A DNA stretch of 64,000 nucleotides, taken from assembly GCA_965213685.1 (NCBI GenBank), contig CBDBZY010000024.1, forward strand, positions 1-64,000, in the 5' to 3' direction. Position numbers and translations under genes: made by a program. Shown in pieces: positions 1,051-55,884 of the stretch. Below the pieces are notes generated by a model, which did no database searches, had not been told where the DNA came from, and was given only the letters and a program-made list of their open reading frames with translations. The stretch is from a bacterium (lineage in GTDB: Bacteria; UBA8248). Positions within the stretch are counted from its first letter, which is position 1; each line of letters starts with the position of its first letter.

Positions 1051-2376
1051 GGGGTGAGCGCCTCCCGCGCGAAGATTTGCAGTTCGCCGCCGAGCCGGCT
1101 CATCCGCAAATTCCCCGCGACGACCGTAGCCACGGCGCATCCCGTGAGCCTCCAGCCGACAAAGGGGGTGTTTCTGCCGCGACTCTCGAAATTGTCCGGG
1201 TCGACGACCACCTCGCGCCCGGGGGTCGAGTATCGTCACGTCACCGGGCGCGCCCTCCCGCAAGGTGCCGTACGGCAGGCCCAGTACCTCGCACGGGCCG
1301 GTGGTGAATTTCGCGATCATCTCGGGCAGCGTGAGCACCCCCCCGCCCACCAGCCTGTCCATCGCCAGGGACACGGCCGTCTCCAACCCGACGACGCCAA
1401 ACGGCACGGCGTCGAACTCCCGCTGGGGTCTCCGCCTCGTAGTGAGGGGCGTGGTCCGAAGCGATGACGGAGATGGCCCCGTCCTTCAGGCCTTCGAGGA
1501 GCGCGCGCCTGTGCCCCGCATCGCGAAGCGGAGGCGCCATCTTCGCGGAGGAGTCGAACCCCTGAATCGCCTCATCCGTCAGGGAAAAATGGTGCGGCGT
1601 CGCCTCCCCCGTCACGCGGAGGCCGCGCGCCTTCGCCTCGCGAACCAGCTCCACCGCGCCGGCGGAAGACAGGTGCAGGATGTGGAGCCTGCCTCCCGTC
1701 AACTCGGCCAGGCGGATGTCCCGATAGACGCATATATCCTCGCTGGCCGCCGGGTTCCCGGCCAGGCCGAGCATGGTGGACGTCCTGCCCTCGTTCATCA
1801 CCTTGCCGCCGGAGAGAGACGCATCCTCGGCGTGGTCGAGGGACGCTCACGCCCCAGCATGCCGGCGTACTCGAGGGCCGAGCGCATCAGCGCCGCCGTC
1901 CGGACCGGCACGCCATCGTCGCTGAAGGCCACCGCCCCGGCCTCTATCTGCTCGGCCATCTCGCTCAGCTCCTCTCCCTCCAGTCCCACGGAAACCGAAC
2001 CGACGGGAAACACGCGGCACGCGCCCACCTCGCGCGCGCGCTTGAGGATGCGCTCGGTGATCGAACTCGTATCGTTCACCGGGTCGGTATTCGCCATGCA
2101 CGCCACGCCGGTGAAGCCGCCCGGCGGCGGCGGCGCGGGTGCCACTCTCGATGTCCTCCTTGTACTCCTGGCCCGGCTCCCGGAAATGGACGTGCATGTC
2201 GATGAATCCGGGCGCCACGACGAGCCCCGAGGCGTCGAGGACTTCATCTCCGGCGCACGGGGGGTATGTCCTTGCCCCTGCGGGCGATTCTTCCCGCCTC
2301 GATCAGGGATGTCGCACGCCGCATCGACACCCTCGGCAGGGTCGATGAGGCGTCCCCCCTTAATGAGCAACGGCAT
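1047..2376 (-). CDS. pyrC: dihydroorotase (multiple apparent frameshifts)
   Basis: Fragments [64 protein letters not shown]; between pyrB and carA. Confidence 0.9.
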
Positions 2377-2379
2377 CGC

Positions 2380-3398
2380 GCGCCCCTCCCGCCCGCCGGC
2401 TCCGAGACGGCCGCAGCACCGCGCGCGGGTGCCGCTCCTCCCGGGGCCGCGTCCTTGCGCTCCTCCTCCCTCCTGCCCGAGAGGAGATAGAGAATCGCCA
2501 TCCGGCAGGCGACCCCGTATTCGACCTGCTCGAGGATGACGGAGAACGGGCCGTCGGCCACGTCCGGGGACATCTCCACGCCGCGGTTGATCGGCCCCGG
2601 GTGCATGATGAGCAAATCCCGCCTCGCCCCCCCGCAACCTTTTCTTCGTGATTCCATAGGTGCTGGCGTACTCCCGCGCGCTGGGGAAAGCGCTCCGGGC
2701 GCCTCTTTCGAGCTGAATTCTGAGGGCGATGAGAACGTCCGCTCCGTCAATCGCCTCATCCAGCCTCGTCGTCACGCGGGCGCCCAGGCACTCCGCCTCG
2801 GCGGGCAGCATGGTGGAGGGGCCGCAAAAGGTGACCTGCGCGCCGAGCTTCAAAAGCCCGGCCACGTTGGAGCGCGCCACGCGGCTATGCGCGATGTCGC
2901 CCACGATGGAAACGCGCAGGTCCCGAAACTTCCGCTTGTGCTCGCGAATGGTGTAGAGGTCGAGTAGCGCCTGCGTGGGATGCTCATGGCAGCCGTCGCC
3001 CGCGTTCACGACGGCGCACCCGAGCTCCCGGCCCAGATAGGAGGGCGCACCGGACGCCCAATGCCGAACGACGAGGACGTCGGTGGCCATCGCCTCAATG
3101 TTTCTGGCCGTATCCCGCAGGGTTTTCGCCCTTGCTCGCCGAGCTCGTGGAAATCGAGAGGTTGATCACGTCGGCGGAGAGGCCGCTTGCCCGCTATCTC
3201 GAACGAGGCGCGCGTTCTCGTGCTGTCCTCAAAGAACAGGTTGACGATGGTTTTGCCCCGGAGGGTGGGAACCTTCTTGACGTCGCGCTCGTTAATCTCG
3301 CGAAACGAATCCGTCTGGTCCAGAAGAAACGATATTTCCCCGGCAGTGAGTTCCCGGATCGAGAGCAAATTCTTTCTCCGGTAGGTCTCCGCGTTCAT
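2380..3398 (-). CDS. pyrB: aspartate carbamoyltransferase catalytic subunit (frameshifted; 3' end approximate)
   Basis: [53 protein letters not shown]. Confidence 0.93.
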
Positions 3399-6099: not shown

Positions 6100-9000
6100 T
6101 CAAAAAAGCTTCCCGAGCGGCCAAGCGTTCAATGGCGCGCGCCTCACGCTTCCCTCCGCCGCCAGCTCATCCTCGGACACCTTGCACATCTCCAGAGCAT
6201 CCAGAACTTGAACGAGAAAGTCAAAATCCTCCGGCCAACGCCCGCTGATTTTCGCGCGAAAAGCATGGGTGTCGGTGAAAACCATGCCCGGCATGTCCAG
6301 AAAGGCGGCCGTCAGTTCGTAGTCTCCGGGGAAGGCCTCCAGATGCGCCTCTTTCCCTCGAACGTGGAGAGACTTGATGCCGCAAAGGCGCGCGCGCAAC
6401 CGGATCTCCCCCAGCTGGAGAAGGTGGGCGGCGCGCGGCGGCATCTCTCCGAACTTGTCTCGCAGCTCGACCGCCAGTTCCCTGATCTCGGCGGGCAGCC
6501 GCGCCGACGCGATTCTGCGATATACCTCCAGGCGATCCGCCTGGGCGGGAATCCAGGAGGGAGGTTAGCGTGCCCGTCACCGGCGCGATTATCTCGGGCT
6601 CGCGCCGCTCGGCGGTCTCGCCTTTCGTCTCCTGGACGACTTCCTCCAGCAGCCGGCAATACATGTCGAACCCCACGGACGCGATTTGCCCCGATTGCCG
6701 GCGCCCCAGCAGATGCCCGGCCCCGCGAATCTCCAGGTCGCGCATGGCCAGCTTGAAGCCGCCCCCCCAGCTCGCTCAGCTCCTCGAGGGGCCATCAGCC
6801 GCTTCTTCGCCTGATCCGTCAAGGAGCCGGAGCCCCGAGACCAGCAGGTAGGCGTGTGCCTGGAACCTGTCGCGCCCCACCCGGCCGCGCAGCTGGTAGA
6901 GCTGCGCCATGCCGAACATATCCGCCCGGTGGATCATGATAGTGTTCACCGAGGGAATGTCGAGGCCGCTTTCGATGATCGTCGTGCAGAGCAGGATGTC
7001 GGCCCGGCGGGTCACGAACTGCTCCATCACCTCTTCCAGTGCCCTCTCCTTCATCTGGCCGTGGCCCACCAGAATCCGCGCGTCCGGCACCAGGCGCGCG
7101 AGCAGCCGGCGCATGGAGGGAAGGCTGCTCACCCGGTTGTGCACGAAAAACACCTGTCCCCCCCGGTCGATTTCCTTCGTGATGGCCTCCTTGATCAGCT
7201 TTTCGCTAAATCGGGATATGTAGGTGCGCGGGGCCAGCCTGTGGAGGGGGGGCGTTTCGATGACGCTCAAATCGCGCGTGCCGGAGAGTGCCATCTGCAA
7301 GGTTCTGGGGATGGGCGTGGCGGTCAGCGTGAGAACGTCCACGTTGACGCGAATCTTTTTGATCTTCTCCTTGTGGGCCACGCCGAAACGATGCTCCTCG
7401 TCGATGATCAAAAGCCCCAAATCCTGGAACGACACGTCTTTTTGCAGCAGCCGGTGGGTGCCGACGACGATGTCCAAGCCCCCCCCAGAGAGCTCCTCCA
7501 CCACCGCGCTCTGCTCCTTTTTGCTTCGGAAGCGCGACAGCATCTCGACGCGAACGGGCAGCGGCTCAAAGCGCTTGCGAAAGGTTTCCCAGTGCTGGTG
7601 CGCCAGCAGCGTCGTCGGCACGATGACGGCCACCTGCTTGCCGGCGGAAACGGCCCGGGCGGCGGCCCGGAGAGCCACCTCCGTCTTGCCGTATCCCACG
7701 TCCCCGCAAACGAGGCGATCCATCGGCCGGGAGCGCTCCATATCCTCCAGGACGGCGCGAATGGCCTGATCCTGATCGGGCGTTTCCTCGAACTCGAAGC
7801 CGGCGGATATTTCCTGATCAAACGCTCCGTCGCCCGAGAACGCATGGCCGGGGGCGACGCTTCGATCAGAGTAGAGGCGCACCAGGTCGCGCGCGATTCC
7901 CCGAAGCGATTTCTTGACATTTCTCTTCGTCCTGCTCCAACGGCCTCCCCCCAGCCTGTCCAGAGGCGGCGGGGTGCCCGCGCCGCGATACTTGTGGACG
8001 CGATCGACGGCATCCATCGGAACATACAGCCTGTCGCTGCCCGCGTACTGCAAAGTCAAAAACTCGCTTTCCCCATCCTGATGCTCGATGACGCGCGCCC
8101 CCATGTAGCGGCCGACGCCATGCTCCTCGTGCACCACCAAATCCTTCTCGCGCAAGTCCTTGAGGCCCTCGCCAGGCTTCGATCGCGCGACTCGGGGGGA
8201 GGCCCTCCCCGAAGCGCCGACCAGCAAGTCCTCCGCGCGAAAGAAAATCCTTCTCTCCCGGGGCAACCGAAAGCTCGCGCCGAGCCGGCCCTCGACCAAA
8301 ACAACGTCGGGACGCTCATCCACCAGGGAAACGCCGCGCGGCAAAATCTCCACGCCCAGCTCATGTTCGCGCAGCAGGGACTGTACCCGCAGGGCGAGGG
8401 TCTTCTCCTCCGCCACGATGACGACGCTCTCGTCTTCTGCACGCCAGGAGCGCAGCTGGAGGACGAACGCCTCCAGCCGTCCGCGGAAGGGATGGACGCC
8501 CTCCGCGCGAAGGGACTCGCCTTCCCCCGGCTCCTCCTCGGGGCCTGCGGCGTCGAGCGCCAGGGAATGGAACTCGAGGCGCGGCCAGATGGATAACTCT
8601 TCCCGAATCTCGTCCGGAGCGAGCCATAACCGCTCCGGTGCGAAGGAGATGAGACCCCGCTCGGGTGCCAGACGCGACTCCTCGTTCACCTCATTCCACA
8701 ACCGCGCCATCGCCTCGTCCAGATTTTCCACCTCATTCAGAATCCACAGCGCATCGCCGGGGACGACGTCGAACAACGTTTTCATCTCCGGCAAGAACAT
8801 CGGCGCCAGCCCCTCGATGCCGGAGAAATATCTCTCCGCGTCCAAATGCTCGACGAGACGCTCGACTCTCGGCCGCGTCTCGGGTCCGGCGGCCTCCCAA
8901 AGAGCGCGGCGGCCATTTTCCAGCTCCTCCGCCGAGAAGATCATCTCCTTCGACGGGAAAACCTCGACGCTCTGTCGCACCGCCAGATTGCGTTGCGTCT

Positions 9001-9613
9001 GTGGATGAAAATCCCGCAGGGAATCGAGCTCGTCCCCCCGAAACTCCAGGCGGATCGGATACGCGCTCTGGGGGGAGAAGAAATCCAGGATGCCGCCCCT
9101 GACCGCATATTCTCCGGGGGACTCCACCAACGACCTTCTCTGATACAGCAATGATTCGAGCGCACCCACGAGCGCGTCCCGCTCCATCGCCGCCCCCTCG
9201 CGCAAGGGAATCACCGCGTCATCGATCCGCTCGGGCGGAGGCACCCGCATCCCCATCGCCGCCGCCGCCGCCAAGACGACGCCCCGCTCCCCCCGGCGCA
9301 AAAACCGCAGCGCGGACATCCTCTTGCCGACGACTTCGCTGGAGGGGGACAACCTCGAGAAGGGATACGCATCCCACGCAGGAAAGCCCAGCACCGGCAG
9401 AAAGCCCCGCGCACCCGGAGTGCCGACGAACAGCCTCGCGTTCGCCTCGATCGTCTGGAGACGACGCGGATCCTCCTCCACAAAAACAACGGGCCTGGGG
9501 TTCTCGCGCGCTATGCGGACGATCCACCAGGCGATGACGGCCTCGCTCGCACCCCGCAGACGCACGCGCGTCCTCCCCTCGGGCGTCGGAGACGGCAAGA
9601 GAGCTCTATCCAT
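6100..9613 (-). CDS. mfd: transcription-repair coupling factor (frameshifts near 6830 and 6560)
   Basis: [71 protein letters not shown]. Confidence 0.96.
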
Positions 9614-17181: not shown

Positions 17182-17790
17182 ATGAGCCGGATGATTGAAA
17201 TCCTGCAGCCCACCTCGTTCGTTCGCGCGGGGGACCACCCTCTGGCGGAGCGGCCCGGAGACCTTGGCGGACTGCGAATCGGCCTGTTCCACAACAACAA
17301 GCCGAACGCCGACGTTCTGCTGGAGCGCATCGAGGAGCTGTTCGCCCAGGCGGACGAAACGCTCCGGTTCGTCCGCTGGGGGAAGCCGAACCCGACCCTG
17401 CCGGAGGGACGCCTCCGGGAGTTCATCGACCAGGTGGACGTAGCCGTCTGCGCGGTGGGCGACTGAGGGAGCTGCACGTCATGGAGTATCCATGACTCGG
17501 TGGAGATGGAGAAGGCGGGGATTCCGACAGCCACGTTTTGCTCCAGCGAATTCTCCGCCCTCGGGGCGAACGAGCGGGTGGCGCTGGGAATGCCCGGTCT
17601 TCCGATCGTCGTCGTGGCACACCCCGTGGGCGGCATTCCGCCCGCGCAGGCGCGCGCCCTCGGAGGCGGGGCGATGGACGAGGTGCGGCGGATACTCACG
17701 GGCGACGCGGAATCGCTGCGAAGCGAATATCGGGATGTCCGCTACACCCCGCCCCGCAAGACGGTGCGCCACAAGGCGCTGTTCGCATAA
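17182..17790 (+). CDS. UGSC-family selenoprotein (Sec encoded by TGA 17464-17466)
   Basis: ORFs 17182-17466 and 17500-17790 share one frame; readthrough gives AVGD-U-GSCTSWSIHDSVEMEKAGIP; N-terminal NNKPNAD motif. Confidence 0.85.
17467..17496 (+). promoter_or_regulatory. candidate bacterial SECIS hairpin
   Basis: Perfect stem gtcatgga/tccatgac (17478-17496) with G-first loop about 20 nt after the in-frame UGA. Confidence 0.65.
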
Positions 17791-17883: not shown

Positions 17884-18979
17884 ATGAACGGGGGGGGAGG
17901 ACGCCGCTGCGCCGCCGCAGGGGGAGCGCGTGCGGGTTCGCGACGCGCCCGAGGCCGTGGCGCGCCTGTTCGAGGCGAGAGGATGGGGGGACGGCCCTGC
18001 CCGTCGTTCCGCCCACGCCCGAGCGCGTCGCCAGGATGGCGGCAGGCGCGGGCCCTCGCCCCAGACGAGGAAATCGGGCGGATGCCGCCCCGCCAGGGGG
18101 GTGCTCACGGTCGAGGCACTCGCCGTCAACGCCCGTGATGGCCGGCTGCCTGCCGGCGCATATGCCCGTTCTGGCCGCCGCCGCCCGGGCGATGCTCGCC
18201 CCGGAGTTCTCGCTCCACGCCGTTCAGGCGACCACCCATCCGGCAGCGCCCCTGCTCATCGTGAACGGCCCCGCCGCCGGGGAAATCGGCCTCAACGGGG
18301 AATATGGATGCTTCGCCCCCGGAAACCGGGCGAACGCGACCATCGGCCGCGCGGTGCGGCTGCTCCTCCTGAAACGTCGGAGGCGCAAGCCCCGGCGTGC
18401 TGGATTCGCGCCACGCAGGGCTCGCCCGCGAAATACGCATTCTGCATCGCGGAGAGAACGAGGCGGAATCCCCCTGGGAGCCGTTGCACGTCGAACGCGG
18501 GCTCGACCCCGGGGAGAGTGCCGTGACGCTCGTGGCCTGCGAAGGCCCGCACAACATCAACGACCACGTCAGCCACGGCGCGGAGGGCATTCTCGCCACC
18601 GCCGCCGATACGATGTCCGTCATGGGGAGCAACAATTTCTACCTGCGGGGGGAGCCGCTTCTCGCGCTCGGGCCGGGAGCATGCGGCGACGATAGCGGGA
18701 GACGGCCTCTCGAAAGCGGATGTGAAAAAAAAGAATTTTCGCCCTCGCGAGAAAGCCCGTCCGCCAGCTCAGGCGCGGCGGCATGTGGGGAATGCAGACG
18801 TGGGGGCGAGGAGATATCCCCGAAACGAGGGGGATGACGATTACGAGATTCCGCTGCTCGACGGGCCCGAGAACCTGATCCTCATCGTGGCGGGCGGCGC
18901 AGGCAAGCACTCCTCTTATCTGCCCACCTTCGGCCCGACGCGCTCGGTGACCCGCAGGATTGACGCGCCGGACGCATAA
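17884..18979 (+). CDS. conserved partner protein of UGSC-type proteins (function unknown; several frameshifts)
   Basis: Fragments GWGDG.LPVVPPTPERV, QATTHPAAPLLIVNGP, NRANATIGRAVRL, PAKYAFCIAE, ESPWEPLHVERG, IVAGGAGKHS. Confidence 0.7.
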
Positions 18980-19146
18980 TAACCCCCGCCCGCCCGCCGT
19001 CATGAATCCCGCGCCCTCGCGCTGCGTCCAACGCACAACGATCCCCCCGTTTGCGTTGCCTGGGGTTCCGCCCCCGTGCTAGGTTTCATGCGCAGGCTGG
19101 GAGAGATGGCGATTTCTTTCCGATTGAGACGGGGGGAGGAGAATCC

Positions 19147-19548
19147 ATGGGAAAACAGCAAATCGTCTCCGAGAAGGTGAAGCCCGTAGCCGCATACTCC
19201 ACGGGCTGGAAAGTGTCGAACGGGTATCTCGTCATGCTGGCGGGCCAGGTGGCGACCGACGCGGAGGGCCGCACCGTCGGGGGAGGCGACATCAAGGCGC
19301 AGGCCCGGCAGGTGTACGAGAACATCCGGGCGGCGCTCGAGGCGGCGGGCGCCGGGATGGAGGACGTCATCCGGCTCACCGTGTACCTGACGGATCGGGC
19401 GCATTTTCCGGGAAGCGTGGAGGTGCGGCAGACGTATTTCCGCCCCCCCTATCCGGCGAGCACGCTCCTGTTCGTGAGCGGCCTGGCGAACCCGGAGTGG
19501 CTGATAGAGATTGACGCCATCGCCTTCGTGGAAGACGCGGCGTCATGA
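19147..19548 (+). CDS. Rid (YjgF/YER057c/UK114) family protein
   Basis: AGQVA, QARQVYENIRAALEAAGA, YPASTL, LIEIDAIA; stop overlaps yqeB start (ATGA). Confidence 0.88.
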   Translation: MGKQQIVSEKVKPVAAYSTGWKVSNGYLVMLAGQVATDAEGRTVGGGDIKAQARQVYENIRAALEAAGAGMEDVIRLTVYLTDRAHFPGSVEVRQTYFRPPYPASTLLFVSGLANPEWLIEIDAIAFVEDAAS

Positions 19549-20404
19549 AGACGGGAAAGTCGATTTCCGATGCGCTCGTCATCGTCAAGGGAGGCGGCGA
19601 CCTCGCCACCGGCGTGGCCCACCGCCTGCGCCGCTCCGGTTTTCCGGTCATGATCACCGAAATAGAAAACCCCACCATGGTCCGGCGCACCGTCTCCTTC
19701 GCCGAGTGTCTCTACTCCGACGAATGGGAGGTGGAGGGCGTGACTGCCGCGAGGGCGAACGGCGGCGCGCTTGCGGAGAAAATCGCCAACGCCCGCGCCC
19801 TGCTCGCGGCGGGTGCCATTCCGGTGGTGGTGGACCCGCGCGCGGAGTCCGTCCCCCGCGTTCGGCCCGTCGTCCTGGTCGACGCGATTCTGGCGAAGCG
19901 GAACCTCGGCACGCGGATGACGGACGCCGAGGTCGTCGTCGGCCTGGGGCCCGGCTTCGCGGCCGGCGTCGATTGCCACGCCGTCATCGAGACCTCCCGC
20001 GGGCATGACCTGGGCCGGGTGATTCTCGAGGGGGCGGCGAAGCCCGACACGGGCGTGCCGGGAGCCATCGGGGGCTACACCACCGAGCGGCTGCTGCGCG
20101 CCCCCCGGCCCGGCGTATTCCGCTCCATCGCCCGGATCGGCGATGTGGTGCGGGCGGGGCAGGCCATCGCCCGGGTGGACGGGGCGGAGGTGACCGCGCG
20201 CATCGACGGCGTCTTGCGCGGCCTCCTCCGGGGACGGCGTCGAGGTGCGCTCCGGCTTCAAGGTGGGCGACGTCGACCCGAGGGCCGACCCCTCCCCATT
20301 GCATGACGATATCCGACAAGTCGCGCGCCATCGCCGGCGGTGCGCTCGAGGCGATCCTGATGTTCCTGTTCGGCGTTCACTCGGCCATGGAGTATGCGAA
20401 TTGA
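19545..20404 (+). CDS. yqeB: selenium-dependent molybdenum cofactor biosynthesis protein YqeB (two apparent frameshifts near 20230 and 20295)
   Basis: KGGGDLATGVAHRL, VRRTVSF, DAILAKRNLGT, GLGPGF, ETSRGHDLGR, ERLLRAP, GFKVGDVDPR, ISDKSRAIAGG. Confidence 0.9.
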
Positions 20405-21285
20405 ATCCTGAAACGCTCACGGAGACAGTGGAGAACGGCGCCTACCGCATCGGACGCAGCGAAATTCCCGTCAACGAATCCACCGGAAACTCCTTCGTCC
20501 CCCCCGCGCAGTTCTACCTGGCCGCGGGCGACGCGCTCGAGCGCATCTCATGGGCGGTGAGCCAGAACCTGCCCGTTCTGCTCGTGGGAGAAACCGGCGT
20601 CGGCAAGACGCTCTCCGTGCGCCATCTCGCCCACATGACCAACAACGGCTTCCGGCGCGTCAACCTGAACGGCATGACCACGGTCGATGAATTCGTGGGC
20701 AAGCTGATGATCAACGAACAGGGCACATACTGGGTGAACGGCATCCTGGTGGATGCGATGGAGTCAGGCGACTGGCTGCTCATCGACGAGATCAACGCAT
20801 GTCTGCCCGAAATCGCCTTCTGCCTGCACAGCCTGCTCGACGATGACCGGATGATCGTCCTCTCGGAGTATGACGGCCGCATCGTCAGGCCCCACCCGCA
20901 CTTTCGGCTCTTCGCCAGCATGAACCCCCATGAGGATCGCAGGTACGGCGGCACCAAGCCCTTGAACGAGGCGCTTCTGGATCGCTTTCCGGTCACCGTG
21001 AAGATGGACTACCTCCCCTTCGAGGCGGAAGTCGAGGTCATCATGCAACAAAGCGGAAACGGCGACGAGGCGCTGGTCAAGCGCATGGTGCGCGTCGGCC
21101 ATGACGTGCGCGAAGCCATGAAAAACGAAAAGGTGTTCTGCACGTTCAGCACCCGCCGCCTGATAGACTGGGCGCGCATGGCGGCGCAGTTCAGCCCCAT
21201 GGAGGCCGCCGTCTCGACCATATTCAGCAAAGTCAACTCTTTCGACGCCAAGGTGCTCGAGGACATCGTGGACAACCACTTCTAG
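20401..21285 (+). CDS. MoxR-clade AAA+ ATPase, CbbQ/NirQ/NorQ type
   Basis: Walker A GETGVGKT, Walker B LLIDEIN, HPHFRLFASMNP, LNEALLDRF, C-terminal STRRL; TTG start overlaps yqeB stop. Confidence 0.88.
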   Translation: MNPETLTETVENGAYRIGRSEIPVNESTGNSFVPPAQFYLAAGDALERISWAVSQNLPVLLVGETGVGKTLSVRHLAHMTNNGFRRVNLNGMTTVDEFVGKLMINEQGTYWVNGILVDAMESGDWLLIDEINACLPEIAFCLHSLLDDDRMIVLSEYDGRIVRPHPHFRLFASMNPHEDRRYGGTKPLNEALLDRFPVTVKMDYLPFEAEVEVIMQQSGNGDEALVKRMVRVGHDVREAMKNEKVFCTFSTRRLIDWARMAAQFSPMEAAVSTIFSKVNSFDAKVLEDIVDNHF

Positions 21286-21299
21286 CCGGGGGATGCGGC

Positions 21300-23069
21300 A
21301 TGGAACGCCGACGCGCCCGCCTCGAAGCGCTCGCCCAGGTGACGGCGCACGACTACGATCTCGCCCTGCTGTTCGGCTCCCAGGGGAAACCCGAGGAGGC
21401 CGCCGTCTGCATCGAGGACCCGGAGAAAACCCTGGCGCGCCTAGGCGGCGACCTCGACGACGAGCGCGTCCTGAGATACCAGAAGGGCATGACGCTCATC
21501 GAGGTGGCCCACAAGCTCCAGGGAACGTTTCGCTGGGCGGGGCGCGCCGTGCTCGCAAACCGCGAGAGGCCGGGTCTTTTCCACCTCTGGCACACGCTCG
21601 AGGACGCCAGGTGCGAAAATCGTCTCGCGGAATCCCTGCCCGGCACCAAAAAGAACTTCCGGGCCTTCATTCGTCCGGCCATCGAGGCCGCCGAGCGGAA
21701 TCACGCGCGCGGAGAGCTCCCCCTGTTTCTCCAGATTCAATGGGGAATCTACCTCGGCGGCATCGGCCAGACGCCCGGCGTCGCCTCGTCAAACCCCGAG
21801 GATTTGCCCGCAGCCTGGTTCGACCCCGTCATCGTCCAGATACTCCAGGGAATCGCGCCGCTGATCGATCGCGCCTGTGCCGCGAAAAACCCCAAAACCA
21901 CCTTCGACTGCGCGAACGAGATGTACGACGCCATCCAGCGATATTTCACCGAAGACCAGCTGGGCGAGATGATGGACGAACAGCAGCTCTCGGAGATTCC
22001 GGAGGAAATTCTCCGGAAGATCGAGAACGAAAGCATCCGGGGGGAGGAGGACGAATCGCTCGAGGCGCTGCACGCGGAGGCACTCGAGGAGGTCGACGAG
22101 GAGGAGGGGGAGCCGGTCGAGCTGACGCCCGAGGAACTCGCCGCCCTCGGGCATTGGGCCTCCCCGTGGTTTGAGCGCGAGGGGAACAAGAAGGAGGTCC
22201 ACCCGACGGCGCAGCATCCCGACGAGCGTACCATCATACTGCCCCCCGAGGGCAAGGCCGAGGAATACGCGGCGATCATCGACAACGCGGGCAGCCACAT
22301 CAAGGTGCTGGCGTGGAAGCTGACGCAGATCATCCAGGAGAGAACCTATACCCGCTTCAGCGGTTCCCATCGCTCCGGCAAGCTGAACCTCCCCAAACTC
22401 TGGAAGCAGCGCCTGGGAAAATTCCATCTCTTCCACCGAAAAGAAGAACCCGAGAAACTCGACGTCTGCTTCACGCTCCTCGTGGACGAGAGCGGCAGCA
22501 TGAACCGCGAGTCGAAATACGTCGCCGCGCGGGAGGCGACCATATTCTTCGCGGAAGTTCTCGACCGGCTGGAGGTGCCCTTCGAGGTGATCGGCTATTC
22601 CACCGAGAGCTCCGAGGCGGCCATGGCGGCGGCCCTGGGACACATCCCCGCGTTCAAGTTCCGGCACATCAGGCACTCTCCGCTCCAGCACCGCATCTAC
22701 AAGGGCTTCGAGGACAGCTTCTCCCAGGTCAGGCATCGGCTCGTCAACATTTATCCGCGCTTCAACAACTGGGACGAGGAACATCTGCTGTTCGCCCACC
22801 GCAGGCTCATGCAGCGGCCGGAGGAGGAGAAGATCATCATCATCACGTCGGACGGCCAGCCCAACGGAGACGCGACCCACCTCGTGAGCACGGTCAACCG
22901 CCTGGAAAAACTCGGCGTCCGGGTCATCGGCGTCGGCGTGGTGGACCCGTTCGTGGAGCAAATCTACCCGAACCACATCGTGGTGCAGGACCTCTCCCAG
23001 CTTTCCACGGAGCTCGTGAACATCTTGAGACGCGAGCTGCTCGGCGGTGCGGAGAGCCGCTCTTGGTAG
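21300..23069 (+). CDS. VWA-domain protein, CobT/NorD/CbbO-like
   Basis: LEDARCE N-terminal motif, acidic linker, SGKLN, MIDAS LVDESGSM and ITSDGQP. Confidence 0.85.
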   Translation: MERRRARLEALAQVTAHDYDLALLFGSQGKPEEAAVCIEDPEKTLARLGGDLDDERVLRYQKGMTLIEVAHKLQGTFRWAGRAVLANRERPGLFHLWHTLEDARCENRLAESLPGTKKNFRAFIRPAIEAAERNHARGELPLFLQIQWGIYLGGIGQTPGVASSNPEDLPAAWFDPVIVQILQGIAPLIDRACAAKNPKTTFDCANEMYDAIQRYFTEDQLGEMMDEQQLSEIPEEILRKIENESIRGEEDESLEALHAEALEEVDEEEGEPVELTPEELAALGHWASPWFEREGNKKEVHPTAQHPDERTIILPPEGKAEEYAAIIDNAGSHIKVLAWKLTQIIQERTYTRFSGSHRSGKLNLPKLWKQRLGKFHLFHRKEEPEKLDVCFTLLVDESGSMNRESKYVAAREATIFFAEVLDRLEVPFEVIGYSTESSEAAMAAALGHIPAFKFRHIRHSPLQHRIYKGFEDSFSQVRHRLVNIYPRFNNWDEEHLLFAHRRLMQRPEEEKIIIITSDGQPNGDATHLVSTVNRLEKLGVRVIGVGVVDPFVEQIYPNHIVVQDLSQLSTELVNILRRELLGGAESRSW

Positions 23070-23899
23070 CGGGCGGGGGCCTCCTCCAGGCGGCGGACAT
23101 CCAGCCGGGCCACGTCGTCGCGGCGGTCGGGGCGGGCGGAAAAACAAGCCTGTTGACGGCGCTCGCCAGAGAGTTTCACGCAGCATCCGGGAAACCCGCC
23201 ATCCTCACGACGACCACCAGGATTTTCGCGCCGCACCCGGAGGAGGGCATCCCGCTGGCACTGGGGGAGGTCGACGCCTTCGCAAGGCATCTCCGCCGTT
23301 GCGTGAACGCGCGCGGAATCTTCTGGCTCGCCCGCCGCCGCGAGGGGAGGACGCCCGTCCCCGGCCAGGCGGGGGAGCACCGGATGAAGCTGGCCGGCTT
23401 CGCGCCGCCGGAAATCGCCGGCCTCCGGCTCGAGGGCGGCCTCGCGCTCATAGAGGCGGATGGCGCGCGGAGGCTGCCCATCAAGGCACCCGGCGCGCAT
23501 GAGCCCGTCCTGCCCGAAAACGCGGACGTCGTACTCGGCCTCGTCGGTCTGGACGCCCTGGGCGCGCCCCTGGACGAAGCGCACGTTTTTCGCCCCGGAC
23601 TGCTCTCCGGGATATGCCGCCTGCCCGTGGGCGCGAAGATAACGGCCGAGTCCGTCGGGAGGCTGTGCGCCCATCCGGAGGGGCTTTTCCGGAAGGCGGG
23701 ACCGCACGCCCGCAAGTGGGTCATCCTGAACAAGGCGGACGCGGAAACCCGGGTGGATACATTCCGAAAAATCGCATATACTATATGGAAGCGGGCCGGG
23801 CCGCCCCATGGCCCGGCGGATGGCGTCCTCGTCACATCGTGCCGCAAGGGCGAATGCAGCGTATTGTTTCGCATGGCGGGGGACGCGCGCGCAGGATGA
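23063..23899 (+). CDS. yqeC: selenium cofactor biosynthesis protein YqeC
   Basis: VGAGGKTSL, LTTTTRI, IEADGARRLPIKAPGAHEP, HPEGLFR, ILNKAD. Confidence 0.88.
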   Translation: MVAGGGLLQAADIQPGHVVAAVGAGGKTSLLTALAREFHAASGKPAILTTTTRIFAPHPEEGIPLALGEVDAFARHLRRCVNARGIFWLARRREGRTPVPGQAGEHRMKLAGFAPPEIAGLRLEGGLALIEADGARRLPIKAPGAHEPVLPENADVVLGLVGLDALGAPLDEAHVFRPGLLSGICRLPVGAKITAESVGRLCAHPEGLFRKAGPHARKWVILNKADAETRVDTFRKIAYTIWKRAGPPHGPADGVLVTSCRKGECSVLFRMAGDARAG

Positions 23900-23921
23900 C
23901 GCACCCCGATGGGAGCCAGGA

Positions 23922-25068
23922 ATGAGCAAAGACGTATTCAGGGAGATGGCCCGCCTCAGAGAAGACGGCCAAACGGGCGCGCTCGCCACCGTCGTGGCGC
24001 GCAAGGGTTCGGCGCCCATGAGCGGCGACGCGAAAATGCTTGTGCGCGAAGACGGCAGCACGGAGGGCACCGTCGGGGGCGGTTGCCTGGAGGCCGAGGT
24101 CTGGGAGACGGCGATGAGCGTTCTGGAGACGGGCGAACCCGAGAAGCTCACCTTCGACCTCACCCAGCAGGAGGCGGAAGACAGCGGGCACATATGCGGC
24201 GGCGTGGTGGAAATACTGGTGGAGCCGTTTCGGGCGTTTCAGCAGGAACTGCTCGACGAGATCAACCAAATCCGCAACCGGGGCGGCAGCGCGGCGCTCG
24301 CCACCATCGTGCAGCCGGGCGCTCTGGAGGTTCCGACCCCGGAGGCCCGAAAAATGCTTTTCCGGCGCGACGGCAGCGCCGTGGGAGAAATTCCGCACTA
24401 TTCGGCGGAGATCTGGGCGGAGAGCACGCAAATCATCCGGCAGGGCAACCCGACCCTTTTGCATTTCAACAGGGACCCCGCGCGCGCGAGGCAAAAAAGG
24501 CCCGCGCCCGGGGAGGCCACGGAGATTTTCGTCGAACCGATTTCCAGCCAGCCCCTCGTCTACATTTTCGGCGGCGGGCACGTATCCTTCTGCGTCGCGC
24601 AGACGGCTTACATCGCCGGCTTCCGGGTCGCGATCGTGGAGGACAGGCCCTCGTTCGCGAACGAGGAGCGCTTCCCGATGGCGGAGGCGTTCTACGTGGG
24701 AGAATTCCCCGATGTTTTCGAGAAAATTCCCGTCGATGAGGCGGACTACATGGCCATCATCACCCGAGGCCACGCGAACGATGAGGTCGTCCTGGAATGG
24801 GCGATGAAAACGAAGGCGCGCTACATCGGGATGATCGGCTCGAAGAGCAAGGTGTTGCTCACGTATCGCCACCTCCAGGACAAGGGCTACGGGAGGGACG
24901 AGCTCATCCGGCGCGTCCACGCGCCCATCGGCCTGGACATCGGCGCCGACACGCCGGGGGAGATCGGGGGTGGCCATCGTCTCGGAGCTCATCCGCTATC
25001 GCCGCCAAGGCGAGGCGAGAGACGGGAGCGTGGGCAGCAAAAGGGTGCGCCTGAGAAGAAGAGCGTAG
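23922..25068 (+). CDS. XdhC/CoxF-family molybdenum hydroxylase maturation factor (frameshift near 24965)
   Basis: LATVVARKGSAP, GTVGGGCLEAEV, ICGG, FGGGHV, TRGH, YIGMIGS, HAPIGLDIGADTP. Confidence 0.9.
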
Positions 25069-25143
25069 TTTTCCCGCCGCAGCGCGCACCCGGGAGGAGC
25101 CCGCCAAAATCCATACGCCCGCAACGCGACCGCTCCCGAAAAC

Positions 25144-25905
25144 GTGAACTATCTCCGCGCGCTCCTGGGGGCGGCGGCGGATTTGCTCATCCCGCCGAAG
25201 TGCCTCCTTTGCCTGGTGCCCATGCGAATCGGCGACCCCCCGCGCCATATGCGCGCCCTGTGCGGACGCCCTGGAGCGGTTCGCGCCCCCCCTGGTGTCC
25301 CATGTGCGGCGCGCCCTTCTCCTCCCAAATCGCCCTCCGCCATTCCCCCGCGCACGTCTGCGCGCGGTGCCAGGAGGATCCCCCGCATTTCGACAGGGCG
25401 CGCGCCCTCGGCGCTTTCGAGGGGTTCCCTGCGAGAGCTGGTGCACATGTTCAAGTTCGAGGGGCTTCACCAAGATTCGCGCGCGAGCTGGCGCCCCCAC
25501 CTCGCCAAACTCGCGGCCGATGAGTTCGGCGTGGACGAGCGGATGGAGAACGTCGTCGTGACGCACGTGCCGATTGACCCGGCGCGCTGGAAAACCCGGG
25601 GCTTCGACCAATCGCTGCTGCTCGCCCTCCGGACGGCGAAGCTCCTGGGCGCACCGCACGCGCATTGCCTGGAGCGCGTGCGCTCCACCCGCTCCCAGAC
25701 GGGATTGTCCGCGCGGGAGAGGCGGCGCAACCTGCGCGGCGTATTCCGGGTCCGCTCCGGCCGCACCCGCCAGCAAATCGAATCGGCCACATGTCTTTTG
25801 ATCGACGACGTCGTCACCACCGGCTCGACCGCCTCGGCGTGCGCCCGGGAGTTGAAAAAGGCGGGCGCCGACGCGGTGTGCCTCCTCACCGTCTGCCGCG
25901 CGTGA
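25144..25905 (+). CDS. ComF-family protein (zinc ribbons plus PRT domain; frameshifted)
   Basis: PPKCLLC, CPMCG, CARC, RGFDQS, ERRRNL, LLIDDVVTTGST. Confidence 0.85.
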   Translation: MNYLRALLGAAADLLIPPKCLLCLVPMRIGDPPRHMRALCGRPGAVRAPPGVPCAARPSPPKSPSAIPPRTSARGARRIPRISTGRAPSALSRGSLRELVHMFKFEGLHQDSRASWRPHLAKLAADEFGVDERMENVVVTHVPIDPARWKTRGFDQSLLLALRTAKLLGAPHAHCLERVRSTRSQTGLSARERRRNLRGVFRVRSGRTRQQIESATCLLIDDVVTTGSTASACARELKKAGADAVCLLTVCRA

Positions 25906-26039
25906 TTTTTGAATTTTTGCTGCGCAGGGATCATCATTATCATCCGGTGCCCTTCAACGGAAGCATTTCGAGCATCCGGGGCAAAAATTGCGAATGTTTA
26001 CTCCGGTCGACGGAAAAGATAGTCTGGTGTCGTCTGAAA

Positions 26040-26271: not shown

Positions 26272-26741
26272 GCAAAATCGCGTTCCGAAACCAACGGGAA
26301 GAATTAGAACAACTGATTCAAGAGATAGAGTCTGTCAAAAGCACCATCAAAGACGTTGGTGCCACAGTGAGCCGAATCGAGCGACATGTCCGGAGAGCTT
26401 TCGACGTTCCGAAGCCATCAAAAGAAAAAAGTGCAGGCAAGAAATCTGGTAAACTTGCAAAGGCCCAACCTGAAACTCTGACGATCTCGGCGAACGAGGC
26501 ATTGAAGGTCTTTGATGAGTTGTCGATTTTATTCGGTGAAGGCCAAGGCGGCGCCGTCGAGGATCGACTTCAAAAGATGGCGATTCCCGACCTCCGGCTT
26601 CTGGCCAAGGAACTCGGAGTAACATTTCGCTCTCGCCCTTCCAAGAAAAAACTTTGCTCCGGAATCATCGGACGGATTAACGAGAGAGCGATGCTTTCAA
26701 AGAATGTAAATATCACTCGGCCCCAAGGTGAAATAGCCTGA
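26268..26741 (+). CDS. hypothetical protein (N-terminal coiled coil, small helical C-domain)
   Basis: GTG start after GGAG, overlapping the previous stop; lower GC and A-rich codons. Confidence 0.6.
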   Translation: MSKIAFRNQREELEQLIQEIESVKSTIKDVGATVSRIERHVRRAFDVPKPSKEKSAGKKSGKLAKAQPETLTISANEALKVFDELSILFGEGQGGAVEDRLQKMAIPDLRLLAKELGVTFRSRPSKKKLCSGIIGRINERAMLSKNVNITRPQGEIA

Positions 26742-26821
26742 ATTTGTGCCACCGCCCATGTTGGAGCGTATTGTCGGGCGTGGGGCAGTGGGAGATATTG
26801 CCATTCTAGATGAACGCACCC

Positions 26822-27852
26822 CTAGGCGTTTTTCGCCATCCGGGCGGCGAGGAGGAGTGCGTCCACCATGCTGGAGGGATCGGCGACGCCTTGCCCGGCG
26901 ATGGGAAACCCCGTCCCGTGCTCCACCGAGGTGCGGATGATGGGCAAGCCCAGCGTGACGTTCACGCCCCGGACGGCTCCCCGCCCCTGCGAGTCGAAGC
27001 GAAAGCACATGAGTTTTCCCGGAATATGTCCCTGATCGTGGTACATCGCCACCACCCCCGTCGTAGCAGCCGCCCCGCAGCTTCCCGAATATGGTGTCCG
27101 GCGGCTCGGGGCCGTGCGCGTCCACCCCCATCTCTCTCAAATCGGAGACGGCGGGCGCGATTTCCTCGAGCTCCTCCCTCCCGAACAGGCCGGATTCGCC
27201 GGCGTGCGGGTTCAGCCCGGCGACGCCGATCCTAGGCTTTTTGCGGATGAGCGAACGCAGGGCGTCGTCCAGCACCCGCGCCACGTAGACGATCCGCTTT
27301 CGCTTCACGCGCCGCAGCGCCACGCGGAGCGGGCAATGGGTGGATACGTGCGCGATGCGCATTTTCCGGTGGGCCAGCATCATCACGGGCCGCCCGCCGC
27401 CGCACAAGGCGGCGAGCATCTCGGTATGTCCCGGGTAGTCGTAGCCCCCGGCGCGCAGGGATTCCTTGCTTATCGGCGCCGTCGTCATGGCGTCCGCCCG
27501 GCCGGCGCGCACCATCGAGACGGCCCTCTCGATATACTGGCCCGCCGCCTCTCCCAGCTCGGGCGCCGCTTTTCCGAACGCCCGGCTTCGGGGAGCGACG
27601 TTTTTCAAGTCCGCCACGGGCGTGCGCGCCTGCGCCTGAGCAGGCAGCGGCGCACTCTCGTCCGCGACCGGCTCCAGCCGGGCCGGAATGTGCATCCGCC
27701 GGGCGTGATCCTCCAAAACCGCCATGTCGCCAACGATGAGGGGGGACGCACCTTGCCTGAACGCGCGCATCCCGGACGGCCTTCAGGCAAACCTCGGGAC
27801 CGACCCCCGCCGGATCCCCCATGGTCAGCGCGATTACAGGGCGTCGTTTCAA
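26822..27852 (-). CDS. pdxA: 4-hydroxythreonine-4-phosphate dehydrogenase family (frameshifted)
   Basis: [56 protein letters not shown]. Confidence 0.9.
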
Positions 27853-37286: not shown

Positions 37287-38508
37287 CTAGTAATACACCT
37301 GCCCGGGACGCACGGGCGGCGTCCACTCGCACGCCCCGAACGGCCCGTCCCCGCTCTCCTTCACGTAGGCGATGCGGGCATCGTTCGCCTGCCCGTCCAT
37401 CAAGGCGCGATGCAGCCAATCCAGAATATACTGGTGGTTGTCCATGCCGCCCAAATTCTTCAGGCTGACCAGGGGGTGGAACTGGTTCTCGAACACCCAC
37501 ATTTCCTTTTTGCACGTCAGGTCCTCGTAGACCTCGATGGCGTCCTCCAGCGGGCAGAGCGGGTCGAATTCGCCCGTCACCAGAAGGGTGGGACACTGTA
37601 TCTTGTCCATGTAGCCCTTCACGGTCATATTTCGCGCCATCTCGTCAAACTCGCCCTCATCCTCCATGCCCGCCATATACATGAATATCTGCTTAAACCG
37701 GGGCGAGGACTGCGTGAAGATCGTGTTGTTCGGGTTGAAGCAGGCCACCGCACTCGCCACCGCGGCCGCGCGATGGTCGTAGCTCGCCAGGCGAAGCGAC
37801 CAGAAGCTGCCCATGCTGATGCCGTAGATGCCGATTTTGGTTGGCTCGATTTCCTCGCGGCCCAGGAGGTAGTCCATCACCGCGGCCCCTGCGCGCTCAT
37901 AGTTCTGCCCGACGGCGCGTATCTTCTGCATGTTGGAGTTCCCCTGCCCCGGGCCGTCCATCGCCAGGACGTGAAACCCCCGCTCCGCCGCGACGTTGTG
38001 CCTGGCGTGGGGGAAACACCTCCTTGGTCTGGTCCATTCCCGGCACGTAGATCACGCAAGGCGCCTTCCTGCGATCGGGCAGCAGATGCAGAAGACACGA
38101 TATGGTCTTGCCGTCGTCGAAGGGCACCTCGACGCGCTCGATGGGATAGGAGGCCGTCTCCGATCGCCTGTCCACCATCTCCTTGAGCTTGTTGGTGAGA
38201 TAGATTTTCACCGGGTTGTCGTCATAGAAAATCGGGTGCTGCGCCATGCGATACGCCTCGATCGCGTGGTCGTAGTGTTCCGTGGCCGTGGGGTGAAAGC
38301 CCTCGCGCTGCGCTTTCTTGGCGAGCTTCTCGTGGGCTTCGGCGGACTCCCGCCATACCTTGGGCAGCATCTGGTAGTTGTGGGCGCGGCTGCCTTGGGG
38401 TACCTCCAGATAATCCCGCTCGAAGTTCTGGACGCGGCCCCTCATGTTCAGGGCCAAATCGAGCATCCACTGCTGGTTGTCTCTTTCCGTGCGTAGTTTC
38501 CGAATCAT
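37287..38508 (-). CDS. alpha/beta hydrolase (FrsA / 2,6-dihydroxypseudooxynicotine hydrolase-like; frameshift near 38000)
   Basis: IERVEVPF, PGMDQTKE, DGPGQG, GISMG, GEFDPLCP. Confidence 0.8.
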
Positions 38509-54061: not shown

Positions 54062-54221
54062 GGCCAGAGGCGGGCGGCGGCGGCCGCTTGATTCCCGGGG
54101 AACAATGGGGCTAGATTGCCCCCCACGCATCGGGACCGATGAGGCGGACGCGAAGCATCCCCTTGTCGAAAGCAAAAGGCCACGCACGCACCTTTCATCC
54201 CTCAATCAGAGAGGCGCTTCC

Positions 54222-55043
54222 ATGGAAACCCAGGATTGGTATTCTGTCAACGAATTCGCACCGAACAGCTACCAGATCACCGAAGGCGGCCGCTTCAACA
54301 TGCTCCTCTTGGTCGGAGACGAGAAGGCGGTCGCCATTGACGGGGGAATCGGAGTCGGGAACCTCCGGAAGCTCTACGAGAGCATCACGGACAAGCCCAT
54401 CGACTTCATCCTCACCCACACCCACTGGGATCACCTCGGTGCGGCCTCGCAATGGGAGAAGGTGGGCGTCCACCCTGTCGGCATAAATCTGCTGGCGAAC
54501 GACTTCTCGAAGATGCAAACCGGCTTCCTGAACATGTGGAAGAACAACGGAAACACGTTTCCCGAGTGGTTTGACGAGGACGCCTACGACATCCAGCCCG
54601 CGGCGTTCGGCTGGACGCTCCAGGAGGGCGACGCCTTCGACCTCGGGAACCGGAAGTTTCACGTCTACGAGACGCCCGGGCATTCGCCCTGCAGCATCTC
54701 GCTCTATGACGAGCGGGAGAAAATTCTCGTCTCAGGCGATCTGATCCGCTGCGAGGAATGCCTGTTCCTGCAAGTGCCCACGGCGGTACTCTCCGACTAT
54801 GCGCCGTCGCTCCGGAAGATGGAGAAGCTCGCACGGGAGAAGGAGGTGCGCTGGATCACCTCGGGACACACCGACCCCTATCCGGACCCCTCCATCATCG
54901 GCGAGCTGGCACAGAACATGGAGGAGCTCGAAGCCGGCAAACACGACCCGCCCGCCAAGGTGGACGGCGGGGCGTGGGGCGAGGTGGATGAATACGTGTT
55001 CCCCCGCGTCAAGGTCTGGATTCAGGATCACGCCAGAAAGTAA
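54222..55043 (+). CDS. MBL-fold metallo-hydrolase
   Basis: THTHWDHLG, TPGHSP, SGD, SGH. Confidence 0.88.
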   Translation: METQDWYSVNEFAPNSYQITEGGRFNMLLLVGDEKAVAIDGGIGVGNLRKLYESITDKPIDFILTHTHWDHLGAASQWEKVGVHPVGINLLANDFSKMQTGFLNMWKNNGNTFPEWFDEDAYDIQPAAFGWTLQEGDAFDLGNRKFHVYETPGHSPCSISLYDEREKILVSGDLIRCEECLFLQVPTAVLSDYAPSLRKMEKLAREKEVRWITSGHTDPYPDPSIIGELAQNMEELEAGKHDPPAKVDGGAWGEVDEYVFPRVKVWIQDHARK

Positions 55044-55068
55044 AACGCTTCCGCGGGAGGGGATATGG

Positions 55069-55884
55069 GTGGACGCGCAGGGCTGGTATGACGTCATCGA
55101 GTTCGCACCGGGGACCTATCAGATCACCGAAGCCGGTCGGTGGAACATGTTCCTGCTCCTCGGCGAGGAGAGGGCACTCTCGCTCGACGGCGGAATCGGC
55201 GTGGGCAGCGTCCGCAGGCTCTGCGAGTCGCTGACGACGCTCCCGATCGATCATGTGCTCACGCACACGCACTGGGATCATGTGGGCACCGCCCACGAAT
55301 GGGACGCCGTGGGCGTTCACCCGAACGGCAGGGAGAAGCTGGCGAACGACTACGGCGCCGGCTGCCGGGATTTCGTGAACACGTGGCGCGGAAGGCCGTT
55401 TCCCGAAGGATTCGACCCGGACGCCTTCACCATACCGCCCGGGAAATTCGGCTGGGCGGTTCAGGAGGGCGACGTCATCGACCTGGGCGGCAGGAGAATC
55501 CGGATATACGACACCCCCGGGCATTCGCCGTGCAGCATCTCCCTGTATGACGAGAAAGAGCGCGTCCTCATCTCGGGAGACCTGGTAAAGCCCGGCCAGC
55601 CGCTCTTCATCCAGGTGCCCACCGCCGTCTTGTCCGAATACGGCCCCTCCCTGCGCAAGCTGGAAAAAGTGGCGCGAGACAACGACGCGAAGTTCGTTTG
55701 CTCGGGCCATACCGACCCGTGCGAGGACATCCCCGTCATCGGCCGGATGGCGCGGTTCGTGGAAGAGGTGGCGGAGGGCAGGCACGAACCGCCCGCCCGG
55801 GTGGAGGCCGGAAAGTGGGGAGTGGTGGATGAATACGCGGCGGACGGCTTCCGGGTGTGGACAAACGAGAACGCCCGAAAATAG
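55069..55884 (+). CDS. MBL-fold metallo-hydrolase (tandem paralog)
   Basis: THTHWDHVG, TPGHSP, SGD, SGH. Confidence 0.88.
   Translation: MDAQGWYDVIEFAPGTYQITEAGRWNMFLLLGEERALSLDGGIGVGSVRRLCESLTTLPIDHVLTHTHWDHVGTAHEWDAVGVHPNGREKLANDYGAGCRDFVNTWRGRPFPEGFDPDAFTIPPGKFGWAVQEGDVIDLGGRRIRIYDTPGHSPCSISLYDEKERVLISGDLVKPGQPLFIQVPTAVLSEYGPSLRKLEKVARDNDAKFVCSGHTDPCEDIPVIGRMARFVEEVAEGRHEPPARVEAGKWGVVDEYAADGFRVWTNENARK

Follow-up and report, generated by a model that had tools for sequence, protein, structure and literature searches.

A CobS/CobT-like AAA+/VWA pair embedded between yqeB and yqeC points to an energy-driven step in the maturation of molybdenum hydroxylases

The locus studied here bears on how the molybdenum centre of hydroxylases acquires its labile selenium or the equivalent sulfur, and it raises a more specific form of this question, namely what an AAA+ ATPase and a von Willebrand factor A (VWA) domain protein do when their genes lie between yqeB and yqeC. 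The locus is at positions 19147-25068 of a 64,000-nucleotide stretch of bacterial DNA (GenBank assembly GCA_965213685.1, contig CBDBZY010000024.1, positions 1 to 64,000 of the forward strand; GTDB lineage Bacteria; UBA8248), hereafter called the window. An original prediction, made from the letters alone, had read the locus as a selenium-molybdenum cofactor maturation operon with a dedicated, CoxDEF-like chaperone pair. The comparative analyses reported here indicate that the pair is real and conserved, and they point to a motor plus an adaptor with a metal ion-dependent adhesion site (MIDAS) that matures a metalloenzyme by an undescribed energy-driven step. Comparative genomics gives good support to a link between the pair and molybdenum hydroxylases, and the selenium specificity of the maturation step is plausible.

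Six co-oriented genes on the + strand form the locus in the order Rid-yqeB-AAA+-VWA-yqeC-xdhC, and the coordinates, strand, overlaps and gaps that had been predicted for them were borne out by profile matches and by reading of the DNA. The first frame of yqeB (19545-20404, +), which covers positions 1-213 of the 256 in the profile, was enough by itself to match TIGR03309 (286.9 bits, cut-off 220). It is followed by the genes for a 294-aa AAA+ ATPase of the CobS/NorQ/CbbQ (AAA_5) type (20401-21285, +; AAA_5 98.4 bits, CbbQ_C 40.4 bits) and a 589-aa CobT-like VWA adaptor (21300-23069, +; CobT_C 71.5 bits), and then by yqeC (23063-23899, +), which matched both TIGR03172 (164.8 bits, cut-off 73.05) and PF19842 (124.2 bits). 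The gene for a molybdenum cofactor insertion factor of the XdhC family (23922-25068, +) ends the row; its corrected frame runs to a stop at 25068, and both its Pfam domains lie above their cut-offs (XdhC_CoxI 96.7 bits, XdhC_C 112.7 bits); its score against NF045664, the aldehyde-oxidoreductase subtype, was 285.6 bits (cut-off 350) for a query that is cut at a frame change of the assembly. At the other end, the first gene belongs to the Rid/RidA family (19147-19548, +; PF01042 94.9 bits; TIGR00004 79.8 bits, under the cut-off of 106.25) and is a variable member of the operon.

The junctions between these genes are short throughout. Rid and yqeB overlap in ATGA, the stop of yqeB overlaps the TTG start of the AAA+ gene as TTGA, 14 nt lie between the AAA+ stop and the VWA start, and 22 nt lie between the yqeC stop and the xdhC start. 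Judging from the sequence, the probable start of yqeC is the TTG at 23063, and given this start the VWA gene and yqeC share a 7-nt overlap (TTGGTAG, 23063-23069). A promoter and terminator scan of 18600-26000 returned counts no higher than expected from shuffled sequence. The 43 open reading frames (ORFs) of the window that were scanned included no structural gene of a hydroxylase, no selD and no mocA, in agreement with what had been noted at first reading.

The gene neighbourhoods of the family were surveyed by a locus scan with one genome per species, in which 367 stretches matched and 191 encoded a relative; the best 80 of these 191 loci were kept, and neighbours were counted only at loci whose contig reaches far enough. 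Loci L001-L064 represent the family and were divided into three groups. Group A (33 loci) has VWA proteins 53-85% identical to that of the window and titles that read Nitrospinota, Tectomicrobia or plain 'bacterium', group B (4 loci; VWA 42-47% identical) comes from the same phylum as the window, and group C (27 loci; VWA 34-57% identical over the best segment) comes from Chloroflexota. The carriers encountered were all uncultured, known from MAG or metagenome records. The AAA gene stands beside the VWA gene in all groups (28/28 in A, 4/4 in B and 22/23 in C). The order yqeB-AAA-VWA-yqeC-xdhC occurs without exception in group A, where yqeB is upstream at 28/28 loci, yqeC is downstream at 31/31 and xdhC is adjacent at 29/29, and the closest AAA and VWA homologs thus carry yqeB and yqeC; their occurrence mostly without these genes had been named as a refutation of the original prediction. 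Group B keeps yqeB-AAA-VWA together (yqeB upstream at 4/4 loci) with neither yqeC downstream (0/4) nor xdhC adjacent (0/4), and yqeC was located elsewhere in both genomes checked. Group C has neither yqeB upstream (0/21) nor yqeC downstream (0/25), and xdhC lies within the locus in 12/20; here the pair is accompanied by the Mo-subunit genes MoL2 and MoL1 (19/19 each) and by FAD and iron-sulfur (FeS) genes (18/18 each), for which the respective counts are 0/27, 0/24, 0/22 and 0/22 in group A and 1/3 each in group B.

The remaining loci, L065-L080, were tried as family members and rejected, as they match the C-terminus of the VWA protein only, at 25-30% identity, in phage-like or HEPN/nucleotidyltransferase contexts; they were left out of the counts. 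Two of them, both from Firmicutes (L072:6421-10597 and L077:8531-10741), encode a larger AAA_5 protein and a CobT_C/VWA protein of ~750 aa near SSB, a YqaJ-like recombinase and a RecD-like helicase, and look like a phage-type CobS/CobT-like pair apart from molybdenum enzymes.

The association with yqeB extends across the phylum of the window. Among its 51 species genomes, the VWA gene was found in 48 and YqeB in 49. Both genes lie on one contig, ~0.9-1.8 kb apart, in 43 of the 48 genomes that have both, and on different contigs of fragmented assemblies in the remaining 5. With this spacing the AAA gene fits between yqeB and VWA, and a direct yqeB-yqeC junction, an arrangement that would have spoken against an embedded pair, is excluded in these 43 genomes. 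The single discordant genome is 67% complete and has a truncated yqeB only, while two further genomes from one genus (G315 and G316, each 95% complete) have no VWA gene, no YqeB and 0 large subunits of the PF02738 family.

The Chloroflexota loci independently tie the same pair to an enzyme of the xanthine-dehydrogenase family. Here AAA-VWA comes after the genes for an FAD, an FeS and two Mo subunits. In 19/22 loci the distance from the end of the second Mo-subunit gene to the VWA start is ~950-1450 nt, into which no more than the AAA gene fits, and in the other 3 it is ~3200 nt. At locus L037 the gap between the Mo-subunit ORF and the AAA ORF is 17 nt, with xdhC ~6 kb away and yqeB elsewhere. 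A metagenome scan with a single protein as query (P0193) yielded clusters of the Chloroflexota type only, with the Actinobacteria-labelled type absent, and added 29 loci that all resemble group C; a Mo-subunit gene was upstream in 20/20 of the loci that reach this far, and the other 9 begin inside the AAA or VWA gene. The large subunit of the Chloroflexota enzyme is split into 436 + 336 residues. Its first half best matches the large molybdopterin subunit of nicotinate dehydrogenase (3hrd_A, 233.3 bits; next chain 164.0) and its second half the medium molybdopterin subunit of the same enzyme (3hrd_B, 218.5 bits; next 156.2). Nicotinic acid hydroxylase of Eubacterium barkeri is counted among the selenium-dependent molybdenum hydroxylases in a passage of PMC11448449 that cites Wagener et al. 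The Chloroflexota enzyme thus resembles a selenium enzyme by sequence, a likeness that is no proof of selenium in the Chloroflexota enzyme itself. Taken together, the gene order in group A, the co-occurrence within the phylum and the enzyme link in Chloroflexota support that part of the original prediction which places the pair in a maturation operon, and show this operon to be conserved.

Both proteins of the pair carry the features of a motor and its adaptor. The AAA+ protein scored higher against AAA_5 (98.4 bits, cut-off 22) than against AAA_3 (36.8 bits), and its AAA_5 core combined with CbbQ_C (cut-off 20.6) places it in the CbbQ/NorQ/GvpN group of MoxR-type ATPases. Walker A (GETGVGKT, residue 63) and Walker B (WLLIDE, residue 125) are both intact, and the protein is predicted from these motifs to be an active ATPase. 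Its best NCBIfam match is the CobS equivalog TIGR01650, with 83.9 bits against a cut-off of 558.55, and its nearest solved chains, all single-domain matches, are CobS (97.3 bits), NorQ (80.6 bits) and CbbQ (79 bits). The VWA protein has a CobT-like C-terminus (CobT_C, PF11775; cut-off 21), matched the CobT equivalog TIGR01651 with 63.3 bits over residues 378-543 only (cut-off 759.05) and matched solved CobT chains with 56.6 and 55.7 bits in the VWA domain only. In a model built on 25 homologs (predicted local distance difference test score 75.6), residues 1-245 of this protein form a helical N-domain, residues 246-294 a disordered linker of acidic character and residues ~385-580 the VWA domain at the C-terminus, and the best Foldseek matches of the model were the VWA domain of NorD in the NorQ complex (9qh6_G, E 9.5e-8) and the MIDAS domains of MDN1/Rea1. 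The MIDAS is complete, with D396, S398, S400, T435 and D518 invariant across the 25 aligned homologs and LLVDESGSM, which holds the DxSxS of the site, in every row of the alignment.

The N-domain of the adaptor is harder to place. Its model had no Foldseek match at E <= 0.001, its best VIA-align Z was 5.5, under the noise line of ~8 and with several zincin metallopeptidases on top, and it had no Pfam match to PF06213, the N-terminal domain of CobT; a language-model feature score of 0.95 to PF06213-bearing clusters serves as a lead only. When five more distant full-length relatives were scanned for PF06213, P0212 scored 33.3 bits (cut-off 26.1) and P0210 24.8 bits. An HExxH motif, at the site of residues 66-71 of the window VWA protein, persists in the middle group and in CobT-like relatives at a greater distance, and the site reads IEVAH in the group of the window and HLLGH in Chloroflexota. 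The N-domain may be a degenerate metallopeptidase-like domain, and a peptidase role for the window protein was rejected.

Among known systems, CobS/CobT, the motor of CobNST, is nearest to both window proteins by profile and by solved structure, and it shares the layout of two genes in which an AAA_5 ATPase precedes a CobT_C VWA protein of ~600 aa. The window pair differs in falling far below the equivalog cut-offs, in having no CobN and in standing in a molybdenum-enzyme rather than a cobalamin context. Its VWA family is also a separate one: a word-indexed search returned 59 full-length clusters of relatives at 311-1275 bits and then named CobT at <= 57 bits, and an exhaustive profile search, with 1314 representatives at E <= 1e-30, returned about nine full-length representatives at 459-878 bits and then a CobT-like continuum at <= 270 bits. 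NorQ/NorD and CbbQ/CbbO are motor-plus-MIDAS-adaptor pairs that act on a finished enzyme. They share with the window the AAA_5 plus CbbQ_C type of ATPase, and NorD provides the best structural match of the VWA model; they differ in that NorQ and CbbQ score below CobS against the window AAA+ protein and in that no nitric oxide reductase or Rubisco context is present here.

The closest analogue in function is CoxD/CoxE/CoxF, and CO dehydrogenase is likewise an enzyme of the xanthine-dehydrogenase family. As described in parts of PMC4240915, the AAA+ protein CoxD, the VWA protein CoxE and the XdhC-like CoxF are encoded together in Oligotropha carboxidovorans and mature the Mo-Cu site of CO dehydrogenase, and CoxE is membrane-bound. 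The lineage of the window pair is a different one: its VWA protein scored 17.9 bits against VWA_CoxE (PF05762), under the cut-off of 26.4, and AAA_5 beats AAA_3 for its ATPase; moreover, the copper step of CoxDEF is not implied for the window pair. Thus, the CoxDEF-like machine of the original prediction stands as a functional analogy and does not stand as sequence kinship, and the pair is, by sequence, best described as a divergent CobS/CobT-like motor and adaptor, not as CoxD/CoxE homologs. With selenium-dependent molybdenum hydroxylase systems the window organism shares YqeB, YqeC, selD and nine hydroxylase large subunits; in the classic arrangement, as in the Chloroflexota genome G001, yqeB adjoins yqeC, whereas in the window the motor pair lies in between.

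Candidate clients are encoded elsewhere in the genome of the window. It holds 9 PF02738 large subunits, all on other contigs, and a selD (C31:101342-102000; 172 bits, cut-off 125) in three frame pieces, whose breaks are probably errors because insertion or deletion errors were confirmed in the operon. The genome thus combines selD with xanthine-dehydrogenase-family enzymes, as expected of a selenium-dependent molybdenum hydroxylase system. Besides the xdhC of the operon, no XdhC_CoxI gene was found in its 8.0 Mb, and the AAA+ gene is its only CobS-like gene. Relatives have 6, 6, 14, 68 and 72 PF02738 large-subunit matches. The two highest numbers, 72 in G309 (5.2 Mb; holds locus L036) and 68 in G310 (3.7 Mb; holds L031), represent an extreme expansion of large-subunit paralogs in the group whose conserved row consists of yqeB-AAA-VWA only. 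A stand-alone kit that serves many hydroxylase paralogs in trans fits these numbers.

On balance, we consider it probable, with moderate confidence, that the pair is an ATP-driven maturation motor that opens the apo large subunit of a hydroxylase for insertion or finishing of the cofactor. The operon would act in trans, as a maturation kit for molybdenum hydroxylases of the xanthine-dehydrogenase family whose genes lie elsewhere in the genome, with XdhC as the protein that carries and inserts the molybdenum cofactor and with YqeB and YqeC as markers of its labile-selenium form. The AAA+ and CobT-like VWA proteins would form a motor of the CobS/CobT type. By homology, the AAA+ protein would assemble into a hexameric ring, the N-domain of the adaptor would dock on this ring, and the VWA domain would sit over the pore and grip the client through its MIDAS metal. 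Parts of a preprint on CobST (10.64898/2026.10.09.757910) describe how CobT binds CobS oligomers through its N-domain, how the hexamer closes with ATP and how the VWA domain is brought to the pore at the centre. The client would be the folded apo large subunit, alone or bound to XdhC, and ATP hydrolysis would open it, and the cofactor, whose terminal ligand is selenium or sulfur, would then be inserted or finished. We infer ring formation, docking, client identity and the chemical step; the large subunit is proposed as client because the gene order in Chloroflexota points there, and cooperation with YqeB, YqeC and XdhC because the gene order in the phylum of the window does. A narrower proposal, which we put forward only tentatively, is that the pair drives the energy-requiring step of labile-selenium insertion itself. 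The motor would open the folded hydroxylase, and selenium that SelD has activated and that YqeB and YqeC handle would take the place of the terminal ligand on molybdenum.

Several observations weigh against the proposed motor for hydroxylase maturation and its tie to the selenium-type system. The best match to the Chloroflexota Mo subunit in the genome of the window is 36% identical, and no clear ortholog stands out as the client. In Chloroflexota yqeB never adjoins the pair (0/21), and G001 has yqeB together with a yqeC-MobA-like fusion in a cluster of the classic kind, next to another hydroxylase. YqeB was found in 24/26 pair-bearing Chloroflexota genomes vs 179/301 sampled genomes of the class, a co-occurrence with a binomial tail of 2.3e-4 that ignores relatedness and lends the link weak support. 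Of these 301 sampled genomes, the pair occurs in 1, the centre genome itself, and the commonness of YqeB beside the rarity of the pair implies that most selenium-type systems work without it. Finally, the joint absence of VWA, YqeB and large subunits from G315 and G316 amounts to one loss event, because the two genomes are kin. The classic cluster of G001 also encodes a DUF6909 protein (L092:4104-5855, +; 724 bits) between the FAD/FeS fusion gene and the Mo-subunit gene.

Other functions for the pair must be weighed on the same evidence. CobS and CobT are the nearest families and solved structures, and some sources call relatives 'cobaltochelatase CobS', so the pair might be taken for the motor of an aerobic cobaltochelatase in cobalamin synthesis. 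We give this reading practically no credence, given the distance of both proteins from the equivalog cut-offs (83.9 vs 558.55 and 63.3 vs 759.05 bits), the 0 candidates for CobN (PF02514) in an own genome that is 94.19% complete, and annotated neighbours among which there is no cobalamin gene. A grouping of the pair with CobS/CobT in cobalamin contexts, which had been named as evidence against a maturation role, was therefore found on the side of sequence and not on that of context. It is also unlikely, though less so, that the motor acts on a complex of XdhC, YqeB and YqeC with the cofactor, to load or release it, and never grips the hydroxylase. The 32/32 loci in both groups of the window's phylum that reach far enough and have yqeB adjoining the pair, the overlap of the yqeB stop with the AAA start, and the complex of CoxE with the XdhC-like CoxF that is modelled in a part of PMC4240915 would all suit such an action. 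The Chloroflexota pair, however, lies directly behind a Mo-subunit gene, and at L037, where this gap is 17 nt, yqeB is elsewhere and xdhC ~6 kb off. MoxR-type ATPases with VWA partners serve many clients, and distant CobS/CobT-like pairs occur in phage-like or toxin-antitoxin-like contexts (L072, L077, L065), which leaves some room for a pair that serves a non-hydroxylase client and merely rides in these operons. That is improbable in view of two different hydroxylase-linked contexts in two phyla, the absence of the pair together with hydroxylases in G315 and G316, and the tight coupling of the genes.

Decay of the operon is a further alternative, as the deposited sequence has two frame shifts in yqeB (near 20230 and near 20294) and one in xdhC (near 24966), and real frame changes would make both genes pseudogenes. 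Each change falls at a G/C run, and the C-terminus of yqeB continues in two other frames of the deposited sequence. Relatives are one base shorter at each of the three sites, with frames open there, and the Logan contigs of three public runs (X1, X2 and X4) are likewise one base shorter at 20230, 20294 and 24966. Across the 5922 bases of the locus the X1 and X2 contigs deviate nowhere else, and both runs may be the source of this DNA, while the X4 contig has 64 further differences and represents a separate strain. Since the extra homopolymer bases are missing from the run contigs and the relatives, the three frame changes are single spurious extra bases in the assembly, and yqeB and xdhC are intact in the organism. 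Other genes of the window appear split too, which also counts against decay, and we regard decay as highly improbable. Split or partial-looking genes are found, among other places, at 54105-55884, 37287-38508, 26697-27770, 1798-3090 and 6776-9613, and they include two overlapping Lactamase_B ORFs, a split peptidase S9 and partial PdxA, OTCase and Mfd; they fit the single-base insertion or deletion errors of the operon. The assembly as a whole comprises 8.0 Mb in 71 contigs, compared with 2.9-4.6 Mb for 22 genomes of the same genus, and more than one strain may be combined in it, although its contamination is estimated at 3.68%.

The flanks of the operon and the other contigs hold further genes. 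A ComF/GntX-like gene of the phosphoribosyltransferase fold (25144-25905, +; TIGR00201 77.2 bits, under the cut-off of 233.55) is a conserved downstream neighbour of xdhC whose membership in the operon is uncertain; it is present downstream in 25/27 loci of group A, 0/3 of group B and 0/25 of group C. The Rid gene varies more within group A, with 19/27 loci upstream of yqeB (0/3 in B, 0/19 in C). About 1.4 kb upstream of the operon lies a UGSC-family selenoprotein gene (17182-17790, +), seen as two same-frame ORFs joined by an in-frame TGA, which corresponds to U95 in GDUGSC, with PF24696 matching both halves. On contig C44 of the same genome, a protein of the AIR-synthase superfamily (L090:1261-2475, -) is encoded ~2.5 kb from the large-subunit gene at C44:163923 and scored 105.7 bits against HypE, 93.4 against ThiL and 85.9 against SelD, all under their cut-offs.

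Within the main-text literature searched, the operon with its embedded pair is undescribed in print, as the original prediction had supposed. The main texts of PMC2276186, PMC2432076, PMC5322559 and PMC11448449 make no mention of AAA, VWA, von Willebrand or MoxR; CobT is likewise absent from the first three, ATPase from the first two and chaperone from the last. Full-text literature searches found no paper linking CobT, CobS and XdhC, only the CoxDEF paper (PMC4240915) for MoxR with xanthine dehydrogenase and von Willebrand, and materials-science papers only for MoxR with selenium and molybdenum. A passage of PMC5322559 calls it unclear what YqeB and YqeC themselves do.

If the proposed role is right, the CobS/CobT type of motor would extend from tetrapyrrole metalation to the maturation of molybdenum enzymes, in a role parallel to that of CoxD/CoxE and from a different lineage. 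If the more tentative selenium-insertion proposal also holds, one shared motor would serve many hydroxylase paralogs, 9 in this organism and 68 and 72 in two of its relatives. The position of the pair between yqeB and yqeC, together with its enzyme link in Chloroflexota, offers concrete material for a reconstitution, namely about six genes that can be cloned and the four genes of a candidate client.

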